Of a stretch of DNA of 64,000 bases, positions 27,901 to 49,477 are shown piece by piece. The notes under the pieces are model-generated. The model made no database searches. It was not told the origin of the DNA and saw nothing but the letters and a program-made list of their open reading frames with translations. Position 1 is the first letter of the stretch. Every line of letters begins with the position of its first letter. The position numbers were made by a program, and so were the translations under genes. Source of the DNA: Escherichia coli (lineage in GTDB: Bacteria > Pseudomonadota > Gammaproteobacteria > Enterobacterales > Enterobacteriaceae); assembly GCF_003334305.1 (NCBI RefSeq), contig NZ_QOWS01000013.1; one strand, given 5' to 3'.

Positions 27901-29434
27901 GGGCAAACTGCTGGCGGAAGTAGTCGTAAATAATGCGCGGCTGACTGGAGAGCACGGCGAATGGGGTGTCGTCGCCCATCGAACCGACCGCTTCCTGACC
28001 GTTTTCGCCCAGTACGCGAATTACGGAGTCCAGCTCTTCCGCGCTGTAGTTAAACTGTTTCTGGTAGCTGGCAAGCGTGTCGTCGTCCAGTTCGCGGCTA
28101 CCCACTTCTTCATCGGGCAGATCTTCAAACGGTACCAGTCGGCGGACGTTTTTCTCCATCCACTCTTTATATGGATGGCGGCTTTTCAGATCGTCATCGG
28201 TTTCTGCCGAGTGCAGAATACGCCCACTGCGGGTGTCGATCACCATCAGTTCGCCTGGCCCGACGCGGCCTTTTTCGACCACTTCGTCAGGCTGATAATC
28301 CCAGATACCGACTTCAGAGGCGCAGGTGATGAGCTTGTCTTTGGTAATGACGTAGCGTGCCGGACGCAGACCGTTACGGTCGAGGTTACAGGCAGCGAAG
28401 CGACCATCGGACATCACGATGCCCGCCGGGCCATCCCACGGCTCCATATGCATGGAGTTAAAGTCAAAGAAGGCACGCAGTTCCGGGTCCATATCCGGGT
28501 TGTTCTGCCAGGCGGGTGGCACTAACAGACGCATGGCGCGGATGATATCCATTCCGCCTGCCAGCAGCAGTTCCAGCATGTTATCCATCGAACTGGAGTC
28601 AGAGCCGGTTTCATTGACGAACGGTGCGGCGTCGTGCAGATCAGGGATAAGCGGCGTCTGGAATTTATAGGTACGCGCACGCGCCCATTGGCGGTTACCG
28701 GTGATGGTGTTGATTTCACCGTTATGCGCCAGGTAGCGGAACGGCTGCGCCAGCGGCCAGCGCGGTACGGTGTTAGTGGAGAAGCGCTGGTGGAACAGGC
28801 AGATGGCCGATTCCAGACGCAGGTCCGCAAGATCCAGATAAAAGCGCGGCAGATCCGCCGGCATACACAGACCTTTATAGATGTTCACCAGATTCGACAG
28901 GCTACAGACGTAGAAGTCTTTGTCGGCTTCGAGACGCTTTTCAATGCGGCGGCGGGCGATAAACAGACGGCGCTCCATATCGCGCGGACGCCAGCCTGCC
29001 GGGGCGTTCACAAAAATTTGCTCAATGCGTGGCAGAGAGGAGAGGGCGATTTCACCCAGCACGCCTTCGTTAGTGGGGACATCACGCCAGCCCACAATCG
29101 ACAAGGTTTCGCGTTGCAGTTCTTCTTCAACGATGCGGCGTGCGGCAGCGGCGAGTTCAGGATCTTTATTCAGGAATAGCATCCCGACGGCGTAGTTTTT
29201 TGCTAAACGCCAGCCGCGCTCCTGCGCAACGATGCGAAAAAAGCGATCCGGTTTTTGTAACAGCAAGCCGCAACCGTCGCCGGTTTTACCATCGGCGAGA
29301 ATCGCGCCACGGTGCTGCATGCGGGCCAGTGCGTGTATTGCAGTACGCACTACCTTGTGGCTAGGTTCGCCTTCTATGTGGGCGATCAGGCCGAAACCAC
29401 AGTTATCCCTCTCAAGGGATTTATCGTACAACAT
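24974..29434 (-). CDS. gltB: Glutamate synthase large subunit
   Basis: ORF-track ORF 24974..29542 trimmed to ATG 29434 ([16 protein letters not shown]...) preceded by GGAGG; 1486 aa; matches GltB. Confidence 0.95.
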
Positions 29435-29612
29435 ATCGTGAACCTCCCCCAGGCTCTGCGGGAACCCCACTTCCGAACCGCTGCGCACGGGCACAGAAAG
29501 AGCGTGGCGACGGGGTTTGCGTGTCATACGCGCGCCTCGCATTCGCCCCCTTGTTGTCCTTTTCGCATCGGTTAATACGGTGAAGAGGGGATCTCAATTA
29601 CTGCATAAATAT

Positions 29613-29631
29613 GATGAGCAGGCTGCTCATC
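29613..29631. repeat. Perfect 19-bp palindrome GATGAGCAG-G-CTGCTCATC in the gltB upstream/leader region
   Basis: 9-bp arms are exact reverse complements; ~180 bp upstream of the gltB ATG at 29434. Confidence 0.6.
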
Positions 29632-30108
29632 CAGAAAGCTTCCAGCGGATTTCCAACTTATCGGGAAAGCTGATACAGGTCAAATGGCAAGCTTATTGGT
29701 ACAGAAATGTGCTTTAGCGCAAAATTCTTTATTAAATGACTGAAATTAAAATAGATTTTATCTTTAAGGCTAAAAGGGAAGTCGTTAGAGAAACAGTCAA
29801 TTCCTGACTGTCATAAAGGCGTGTTAACCCTTATCCTGCCTTGAACTGACGAGAAAACCAGCATTTTATACTGCCTTAATTGGTAATGACGTTTCATGCT
29901 ACTGTTTTTGCCTAAAATCCATAAGGAGATAAAAAAATCTGACACAAGATAAGCAAAAGTGATTTATGTGATTATGCATGAAATTTCGGTAATTTTGATT
30001 GATTATGCAGTTGATAAAAGCAGGCCGGGACGATTGATCCAGGTCATCGCAGAATTGAGCTAAAAATGGCAGGCTTTGGCCTCTTTTCAAGGCGCGGTCT
30101 ATCAGATT

Positions 30109-31038
30109 ATGCAGTTACAGAAATTAGTCAATATGTTTGGTGGTGATCTCACCCGTCGTTATGGGCAAAAGGTGCATAAGCTGACGCTGCACGGCGGTTT
30201 TAGCTGCCCTAACCGTGACGGTACCATCGGGCGTGGTGGCTGCACATTCTGTAATGTGGCCTCGTTTGCCGATGAAGCGCAGCAGCATCGTTCCATTGCC
30301 GAGCAACTGGCGCACCAGGCGAATTTAGTTAACCGCGCTAAACGCTATCTGGCCTACTTTCAGGCGTATACCAGCACCTTTGCGGAAGTTCAGGTGCTGC
30401 GTTCTATGTATCAGCAGGCGGTGAGCCAGGCCAATATTGTCGGTTTGTGTGTTGGTACCCGCCCGGACTGCGTGCCGGATGCGGTGCTGGATCTGCTTTG
30501 CGAATATAAGGACCAGGGTTACGAAGTGTGGCTGGAACTGGGGCTACAAACCGCCCACGACAAAACACTGCATCGCATCAACCGCGGCCATGATTTTGCC
30601 TGTTATCAGCGTACAACCCAGCTGGCACGTCAGCGCGGGCTGAAGGTGTGTTCCCACTTAATTGTCGGCCTGCCTGGCGAAGGGCAGGCTGAATGTTTGC
30701 AAACGCTGGAGCGAGTGGTTGAAACCGGCGTGGACGGCATAAAGCTGCATCCGCTGCATATTGTGAAAGGCAGCATTATGGCGAAAGCCTGGGAAGCGGG
30801 GCGTTTGAACGGTATTGAACTGGAGGATTACACGCTCACTGCCGGAGAAATGATTCGCCATACGCCACCGGAAGTGATCTACCACCGCATTTCCGCCAGC
30901 GCCCGTCGCCCGACGCTGCTTGCTCCGCTGTGGTGCGAAAATCGATGGACGGGAATGGTCGAGCTGGATCGCTATCTGAATGAACATGGCGTACAGGGAT
31001 CGGCGCTGGGACGTCCGTGGCTACCTCCAACGGAGTAG
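30109..31038 (+). CDS. yhcC: Radical SAM protein YhcC
   Basis: ORF-track ORF 30076..31038 (TTG) trimmed to ATG 30109 (MQLQKLVNMFGG...), 309 aa; Cys motif CPNRDGTIGRGGCTFC; matches YhcC. Confidence 0.9.
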   Translation: MQLQKLVNMFGGDLTRRYGQKVHKLTLHGGFSCPNRDGTIGRGGCTFCNVASFADEAQQHRSIAEQLAHQANLVNRAKRYLAYFQAYTSTFAEVQVLRSMYQQAVSQANIVGLCVGTRPDCVPDAVLDLLCEYKDQGYEVWLELGLQTAHDKTLHRINRGHDFACYQRTTQLARQRGLKVCSHLIVGLPGEGQAECLQTLERVVETGVDGIKLHPLHIVKGSIMAKAWEAGRLNGIELEDYTLTAGEMIRHTPPEVIYHRISASARRPTLLAPLWCENRWTGMVELDRYLNEHGVQGSALGRPWLPPTE

Positions 31039-35774: not shown

Positions 35775-35920
35775 ATGCCTCTTAAGGTTTTCTTAAGGTT
35801 CTTCTGAAAGTGAAAAGCGCACAAAATGTACAAATGACGTTGATTGAGAACGATTTCAGTACGTGATTTTCTTATTGTCGGGGGGAGTTTGAAGGGAGTT
35901 GTATGTCAAAGTGATGAAGA

Positions 35921-36193
35921 TTAATCTTCATCAAAACCAGAGTTAAAGAGGGCGATAACGGCGGCCAGTGCTTCCTCTTCCTGTGGGCCGGTCGCTTCAA
36001 CTTCAATCTGCCGTCCTTTGGCAGAATCCAACATCAGCAGCGCAATAACGCTGTTGGCTTCGGCCTCGGTGCCTTCGTCATTACGTAACAGCACTTCAGC
36101 GTCAAAACCCTGCATTAATTCAAACAGCTTCATTGCAGGCCGGGCATGCATGCCCAGCTTGTTTGTGATTTCAACAGTTTGCTTGACGGTCAT
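35921..36193 (-). CDS. npr: Nitrogen-PTS phosphocarrier protein NPr
   Basis: 90-aa HPr-like ORF (…[10 protein letters not shown]…); matches NPr/PtsO. Confidence 0.94.
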
Positions 36194-49250: not shown

Positions 49251-49477
49251 CTTTCCTCACTCCTTAAGTTAGTCGCTTTCATTCAGAACACTTCTTCTGT
49301 CGGGCATCACTATACTCCTGATGGCCTATTGATCTAAAAAGTTCCTGTAAAGAGTGTGAATATTCAGAATATATAAAGATTCATCGCCCTTTTTTTCAGG
49401 TGTTATAGCGCTGAATTAGTGTTTTTATGGAATTTACTGGAATCATCCCGCGCACTGCGCGGGATGAAGGGAGGGGA

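Follow-up and report, generated by a model that had tools for sequence, protein, structure and literature searches.

The palindrome considered here is located in the spacer between gltB and yhcC (yhcC/mnmL) of Escherichia coli. In the window, which is the whole analysed stretch of 64,000 nucleotides, gltB lies on the minus strand with its RefSeq ATG at 29434, and yhcC/mnmL starts at 30109 on the plus strand, with a spacer of 674 bp between them. The spacer harbors the sequence GATGAGCAGGCTGCTCATC, an exact palindrome with 9-bp arms around one central base (Table 1). Its symmetry ends at the tenth position, and it starts 179 nt upstream of the gltB ATG. The coordinates, the distance of about 180 bp and the gene context agree with the preliminary description of the site, which had also called a perfect palindrome of this length improbable by chance. 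The counts support this view: the window contains four perfect inverted repeats whose arms reach 9 bp or more and whose spacer is 0-1, compared with 0.45 ± 0.59 in 40 dinucleotide-preserving shuffles. The motif itself occurs once in the window at up to three mismatches (0.03 expected). Among 5426 complete E. coli genomes, an 801-bp probe over the site has matches in 5417, with gltB and yhcC/mnmL as the features, and a 65-nt stretch is at least 99% identical and single-copy in 5380 of these 5417 genomes. The single copy rules out a repetitive extragenic palindrome (REP/BIME).

Further perfect inverted repeats, with arms of 10 bp or longer, are found elsewhere in the window, at 35912-35933 (TGATGAAGATTAATCTTCATCA, an inverted repeat without a loop), 22954-22978, 23032-23056 and 49443-49467. 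The repeats at 22954-22978 and 23032-23056 are probably terminators, matching a published 3′ end after gltD.

The transcription start of gltB can be derived from the published promoter analysis. The Crp site was placed at -76 to -55 with its centre at -65.5, and it is mutated by the primer gltcrp1 (Paul et al. 2007, PMC1784095). The 22-mer of this site corresponds to positions 29726 to 29705 of the window, which puts the gltB +1 at about 29650 on the minus strand. If the -325 to +8 fragment came from the primers gltP1 and gltP2, +1 would be 29652, so that the uncertainty amounts to 2 nt. With the start at about 29650, the palindrome is part of the transcript and takes up positions +20 to +38 of a leader of 216 nt. 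The remaining regulator sites are reported at -361 to -318 for ArgR, more than 150 bp upstream of the start for Lrp, and upstream of the Crp site for IHF (PMC1784095). Set against the mapped start and the footprints, the palindrome therefore falls inside the transcript, downstream of the promoter and beyond every footprinted Lrp, IHF, Crp and ArgR site. It can be assigned to none of the known gltBDF regulators, a point on which the preliminary description was right.

The length of the leader depends on the start codon of gltB. The older ATG at 29527 (MTRKPRR...) is not conserved, and the indels nearby are not multiples of three. The frame-breaking indels in this unconserved region support the start at 29434 and a genuine untranslated leader, and the shorter gltB annotation is favoured over the older one. 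Across Enterobacterales the untranslated leader measures 203-249 nt and ends in a conserved module of Shine-Dalgarno (SD) sequence and start codon.

Table 1. Features of the gltB promoter and leader, with positions in the window and, where given, in the transcript or in MG1655.
Feature	Window	Strand	Other position	Sequence or description
gltB sigma-70 promoter	29655..29683	-		hexamers conserved across Enterobacterales and beyond
Promoter -35 hexamer	29678-29683	-		TTGACC; 17-bp spacer to the -10 hexamer
Promoter -10 hexamer	29655-29660	-		TAAGTT
P1 5′ flank	29632..29650	-	+1..+19	AUCCGCUGGAAGCUUUCUG; nearly invariant, predicted mostly single-stranded
Palindrome	29613-29631		MG1655 3354528-3354546
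Stem-loop P1	29613..29631	-	+20..+38	sequence, fold, covariation
P1 5′ arm	29624-29631	-		GAUGAGCA
P1 loop	29621-29623	-		GCC
P1 3′ arm	29613-29620	-		UGCUCAUC
P1 3′ flank	29597..29612	-	+39..+54	AUAUUUAUGCAGUAAU; A/U-rich, nearly invariant
Mini-ORF	29598-29606	-	AUG at +45 (MG1655 3354553)	AUG-CAG-UAA (Met-Gln-stop)
Remaining leader	29435..29596	-		alignments, RNAalifold
C-rich segment	29583-29591	-		UCCCCUCUU
G-rich partner	about 29543-29551	-		AGGGGGCGA
SD	29443-29447	-		GGAGG, inside a conserved local hairpin
gltB ATG	29432-29434	-		follows the SD

Fold and covariation of stem-loop P1

When the palindrome is folded as a single strand, eight of the nine arm pairs can form around a 3-nt loop, and the same eight pairs are kept in relatives. 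The resulting stem-loop is termed P1. For the comparison, 80 loci from species-representative genomes were retrieved via the GltB protein, which leaves their leaders unbiased; 16 of these loci are from Enterobacterales. A further 120 loci with 87 distinct leaders came from scanning metagenomes with a pattern in which only parts of the flanks were fixed. Covariation was evaluated on 44 distinct module sequences from Enterobacterales.

All 16 Enterobacterales leaders carry a hairpin at the same place, and their stems differ. Examples are GATGAACA/TGTTCATC, GATGGGCC/GGTCCATC and GATGGGTG/CACTCATC, as well as CTAGACG/CGTCTAG in Yersinia and TCAGAT/ATCTGA in Photorhabdus. In the 44 module sequences, 86.6% of the helix cells are paired, compared with 22-55% when the partner strand is slid by one to three columns. 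Compensatory double changes are present in seven of the eight P1 pairs. Double-change cells number 45 against 16.6 in shuffles, and the observed covariation was reached by none of the 500 shuffles. The ninth E. coli pair is not conserved; it is part of a loop whose sequence differs between leaders and whose length ranges from 3 to 7 nt. RNAalifold independently finds the P1 helix both in the 44 module sequences and in 21 full-length leaders, in which P1 is the only helix with all pairs kept, and across 86 full-length leaders the median probability of its pairing is 0.98. In thermodynamic terms the E. coli sequence is not unusually stable, with z = -0.21 for the 60-nt module and z = +0.22 for the 226-nt leader. 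Since the whole-leader fold has no excess stability, the case for P1 rests on the comparative data. Poor conservation in close relatives, which the preliminary description had named as an argument against the palindrome, is found for its letters, which drift, but not for its pairing structure, which is retained across Enterobacterales.

The mismatches inside the stem are asymmetric between the strands. Read on the gltB-sense strand, 30 of them are G-U or U-G and only 5 are A-C or C-A, the latter being those that the opposite strand would read as G-U (20 versus 2 without the innermost pair); the mismatch cells are not phylogenetically independent, but the direction of the G-U excess is clear. 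Such an excess on the sense strand argues that a folded sense-strand RNA has been selected and not a site in duplex DNA. Together with the position at +20 to +38 and the compensatory substitutions, it speaks for an RNA hairpin in a long 5′ UTR, which was one of the two readings first offered for the palindrome, and the comparative data make it very probable that P1 represents an RNA hairpin and not a site in DNA.

The other reading was that of a site for a dimeric regulator. Here, an operator for a homodimeric DNA-binding protein at +20 to +38 would block elongation. The perfect 9+1+9 palindrome within a regulatory region fits this idea, and the 19-bp dyad symmetry seen in E. coli is shared with the palindromic operators of dimeric repressors. 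Symmetric co-evolution of half-sites could in principle also imitate base-pair covariation. The half-site sequence, however, is unconserved, with at least 40 distinct stem haplotypes that include unrelated stems such as GCGGA/UCCGC and the UCAGAU/AUCUGA of Photorhabdus, and the innermost palindrome pair is not retained in relatives. The 30:5 bias of G-U over A-C is strand-specific, which differs from such operators. No second copy of the motif occurs in the window at up to three mismatches, and the 65-nt module is present at one place per E. coli genome. DNase I footprints of ArgR and Crp on fragments extending to +161 and protein capture on a -406 to +246 fragment revealed only upstream sites (PMC1784095), so that the gltB element also differs from dimeric-repressor operators by having no reported footprint. 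An operator is thus extremely improbable, and this part of the preliminary description is not supported. An ArgR half-box was also considered for the leader sequence TTATGCAGT, and it was rejected. Its left half is a poor match, and the published ArgR footprint on the -462 to +161 fragment covers only -361 to -318.

As judged from the aligned leaders, P1 is a single-strand structure that has been selected on the gltB-sense strand within the transcribed leader.

Flanking strands, distribution of the module and the remaining leader

P1 is framed by the strands CCGCUGGAAGCUUUCUG and CAUAUUUAUGCAGU, both of which are nearly invariant. In the protein-retrieved genomes, the 5′ flank follows the consensus (A/G)UCCGCUGGAAGCUUUCUG at +1 to +19 and holds a conserved GGA and CUGGAAGC, and the 3′ flank follows the consensus CAUAUUUAUGCAGUAAU at +38 to +54. 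The ATGCAGT of the 3′ flank is kept in 15 of the 16 protein-retrieved Enterobacterales genomes. This invariance rests on the 16 protein-retrieved genomes only, as the metagenomic pattern had fixed parts of the flanks. The junctions between flanks and hairpin are free of indels except for a one-nucleotide insertion in Rosenbergiella. A closing helix P0 is predicted that encloses P1 by pairing GCUG at +5 to +8 (29643-29646) with CAGU at +48 to +51. The P0 columns are invariant save for G-to-A changes that keep the pairing, and because the flanks are invariant, their pairing partners are not open to a covariation test.

When Photorhabdus was left out of the covariance model of the 57-nt module, the model still detected the module at its usual place ahead of gltB in both genomes of this genus (E about 0.003), and its match in Rosenbergiella is marginal. 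Photorhabdus retains the 5′ module and the SD module, and its mid-leader is unrelated. With the same model, the module is absent from the gltB loci of Vibrio, Aeromonas, Shewanella, Pseudoalteromonas, Acinetobacter and Pseudomonas, and there is no further copy in the window and none outside the gltB leaders of Enterobacterales. By these covariance-model searches, the module is confined to Enterobacterales. A scan of positions 29300-30200 against Rfam 15 at E ≤ 10 yielded no relevant family. The best matches are an unrelated Clostridioides difficile sRNA with 16.9 bits (gathering 128) and the hairpin ribozyme with 14.9 bits (gathering 65). The gltB element resembles the cis-regulatory families of Rfam in being conserved, covarying and located in a 5′ UTR. 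On these comparative grounds, P1 is a conserved cis-acting 5′ UTR structure without an Rfam family and with a putative role. No description of the hairpin was found in the literature searched, and an earlier mention of a dyad in older work on the gltB untranslated region is conceivable.

The 9-mer TTATGCAGT has three copies in the 64-kb window (0.59 expected), and all of them are in the gltB/yhcC spacer. The copy at 29600-29608 on the minus strand is the one in the conserved 3′ flank of P1. The copy at 30003-30011 on the plus strand lies at the edge of the published ArgR footprint and opens a 10-codon ORF, and the copy at 30107-30115, also on the plus strand, spans the yhcC start codon (ATG CAG T..). 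Both plus-strand copies have GATTATGCAGTT in common.

Downstream of the module, the C-rich segment UUCCCUCU (UCCCCUCU in E. coli) covaries with the G-rich segment AGAGGGCGA, whose E. coli form is listed in Table 1. Compared with other Enterobacteriaceae, E. coli-type leaders carry UCCCCUCU for UUCCCUCU and AGGGGG for AGAGGG in the mid-leader, and their SD is GGGGGAGG where the others have GGGGAGG. These changes are coordinated, which suggests competing pairings of one C-rich strand. An internal GCAAGU...ACUUGU hairpin is missing in the E. coli leader.

A pairing between the 3′ flank of P1 and the start codon region was proposed by RNAalifold with ribosum scoring, and it was rejected. Its columns are invariant, and variants in the start region are uncompensated. 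The ensemble support amounts to about 2.4 expected pairs, and in E. coli, whose start region has CACGAUAUG in place of CACUGAUAUG, the long-range pairing is weak.

Candidate functions of P1 and its flanks

Structured enterobacterial leaders such as those of ompA, rpoS and glgC serve as platforms for Hfq, sRNAs or CsrA. The gltB leader resembles them in its length, its stable hairpin and its conserved single-strand flanks, one of which is A/U-rich, and for it, too, the literature holds hints of contact with sRNA, Hfq or CsrA. It differs from them in that the P1 loop lacks a GGA and that P1 is placed away from both the 5′ terminus and the ribosome-binding site. P1 can tentatively be proposed as a scaffold for post-transcriptional control. 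It lies at the centre of a 57-nt 5′ module that heads the leader and would act as a constitutive structural clamp that fixes the geometry and accessibility of the strands flanking it, CUGGAAGC... 5′ of P1 and AUAUUUAUGCAGU 3′ of it. These strands might be bound by Hfq-dependent sRNAs (RyhB, GcvB) or by CsrA, or they might pair with the distant start region, and either route would tune gltB translation and mRNA decay. Taken as a whole, the view that the palindrome is the DNA image of P1 (8 bp, 3-nt loop) in the gltBDF mRNA and that P1 has a post-transcriptional scaffold role appears rather probable. This grading blends two parts, namely the identity as a hairpin, which is held with high confidence, and the role as a scaffold, for which the confidence stays below even.

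The published hints concern several regulators. In Hfq-CLASH data, chimeras join GcvB with the gltB leader fragment GAUGCGAAAAGGACAACAAGGGGGCGAAUG at +82 to +111 (29540-29569, minus strand). This site is 45 nt downstream of P1 and overlaps the G-rich partner of the C-rich segment. Ribosome profiling with RyhB indicated that gltB is repressed translationally while its mRNA level is unchanged, an unvalidated observation. The strand CUGGAAGC (+6 to +13) is perfectly complementary to nucleotides 53-60 of RyhB, a match that is not significant, as 20% of shuffled leaders also give such an 8-mer. Duplex predictions of RyhB and GcvB against the leader were discarded, as they returned long, loop-ridden and meaningless duplexes. 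In the case of CsrA, gltB copurified with the protein, and its half-life was 7.9 min in the wild type and 4.7 min in a csrA mutant. An E. coli CsrA CLIP-seq study reported no gltB peak, and in Vibrio alginolyticus CsrA binds gltB RNA strongly. CsrA sites present a GGA in a hairpin loop and usually number two, one of them at the SD; in the gltB leader, the P1 loop contains no GGA and the GGA at the base of P1 is lost in several lineages; the GGA at +8 to +10 and the one in the SD are conserved.

Several other functions have to be weighed against the scaffold. P1 and the following AUAUUUAU could form a weak intrinsic terminator or a hairpin-dependent pause at about +44 to +50, which would reduce transcription into gltB or set its timing and might release a 5′ RNA of about 45 nt, potentially active in trans through its conserved single-stranded 5′ end. 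With intrinsic terminators and leader attenuators P1 shares a covarying stem and a tail that contains U, placed on the sense strand in the leader of an operon for biosynthesis. A consensus scan flags the hairpin and tail as terminator-like on the gltB-sense strand (with a criterion of only 5 T in 8), the tail is A/U-rich in all relatives, and the order of conserved 5′ single strand, covarying hairpin and U-rich tail approximates a minimal sRNA layout. Premature 3′ ends also occur in the gltB leader, at +149. However, the tail differs from that of terminators, as it opens with A-U-A-U and its U-tract is interrupted, with 5 U in 8. A discriminant of the d'Aubenton-Carafa type gives -43.5, far under the terminator threshold, with a T-score of 1.33. 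No anti-terminator pairing competes for the 5′ arm, and the exact invariance of the tail exceeds what a U-tract requires. Term-seq lists the end at +149 as the only one in the leader and none near +45, though RNAs this short may escape library preparation. Attenuation at P1 is therefore considered unlikely. A role of P1 in mRNA decay is quite unlikely. P1 together with the adjacent AUAUUU would here provide a site of the RN|WUU type at which RNase E enters or cleaves, or an Hfq site as in the ompA leader, and would set the half-life of gltBDF. The A/U-rich single strand directly 3′ of a stable hairpin, the altered gltB half-life in the csrA mutant and the Hfq-bound fragments from the gltB leader are in line with it, but the 19 nt that precede P1 mean that there is no 5′-terminal protective hairpin. 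A decay determinant also overlaps the scaffold explanation and does not exclude it. A 5′-terminal stabilising stem-loop of the ompA type is excluded by the same 19 unpaired nucleotides.

The mini-ORF in the 3′ flank offers a translational alternative, in which translation of this ORF, perhaps in response to glutamine-charged tRNA, would rearrange the leader or protect it from Rho, and P1 would position the ribosome. AUG-CAG is found in 15 of the 16 protein-retrieved genomes and also in Aeromonas and one Vibrio leader, its third codon is TAA, TGA or TAG depending on the lineage, and glutamine is the substrate of the encoded enzyme. The mini-ORF is nonetheless not preceded by a Shine-Dalgarno sequence, and 6 nt separate its AUG from a stable hairpin. 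At least four lineages have lost the stop and carry TTA or TAT at codon 3, the frame is unconserved, and in Rosenbergiella the AUG is lost while CAGU and its GCUG/ACUG partner persist. The mini-ORF is missing from the ribosome-profiling catalogue of novel translated ORFs that was searched, and a single regulatory codon would make a poor sensor. A regulatory mini-ORF is thus very unlikely.

A more elaborate form of the scaffold would make P1, the closing helix GCUG/CAGU and the two invariant loop strands an order-wide sensor module, that is, a riboregulator in the gltBDF leader. Its signals could be iron (RyhB binding to CUGGAAGC), amino-acid status (GcvB or CsrA) or glutamine (the AUG-CAG-stop mini-ORF). 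It would free or sequester UAUGCAGU, a strand with complementarity to ACUGAUAUG in the gltB start region, which lies about 170 nt further downstream, and would thereby switch translation. In a variant, the first 45 nt or so would be released as a small RNA or as an sRNA sponge. Such a riboregulator is considered unlikely.

E. coli assimilates ammonia by two routes, one of which is GOGAT (GltBD). Work on the control of GOGAT has dealt almost wholly with the promoter and its regulators Lrp, IHF, Crp and ArgR. An Enterobacterales-wide leader with a covarying hairpin between near-invariant strands indicates an added layer of control at the RNA level. The P1 module is a place to seek the translational effect of RyhB and the Hfq-bound chimeras of GcvB and gltB. 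The palindrome alone is an ordinary hairpin, and if P1 were merely a passive structural element, the result would be an ordinary one. The module around it is unusually conserved and belongs to a central operon of nitrogen assimilation.

Other RNA ends and binding sites have been reported around the leader. A Term-seq 3′ end at MG1655 3354657 corresponds to position 29502 on the minus strand of the window, which is +149 of the leader (PMC7815308). UCUUUCUGUG follows it closely, and the conserved CCCCGUCGCC precedes it. The surrounding sequence, CGCUCUUU, is similar to a boxA element and is only partly conserved. The end is labelled as ORF-internal in the source because the older gltB start was used there. 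Another Term-seq 3′ end, at about 30018 on the minus strand (MG1655 3354141), falls within the annotated small RNA feature G0-10702. This feature belongs to the gltB-sense strand, precedes the gltB start by about 370 nt and is antisense to the 5′ region of yhcC. G0-10702 is probably the Hfq-dependent 'yhcC-gltB' sRNA of the literature. The idea that the hairpin is this sRNA was dropped because the feature, which includes MG1655 3354141, is too far from it, some 370 nt ahead of the start. The candidate sRNA ECS018, described as 'antisense to gltBDF', is located in the gltD-gltF spacer and is irrelevant to the leader. In Salmonella, the literature reports a MarA ChIP-seq peak with the marbox GCAAACGCTGAAAAA in the yhcC/gltB intergenic region, which is unrelated to the palindrome.
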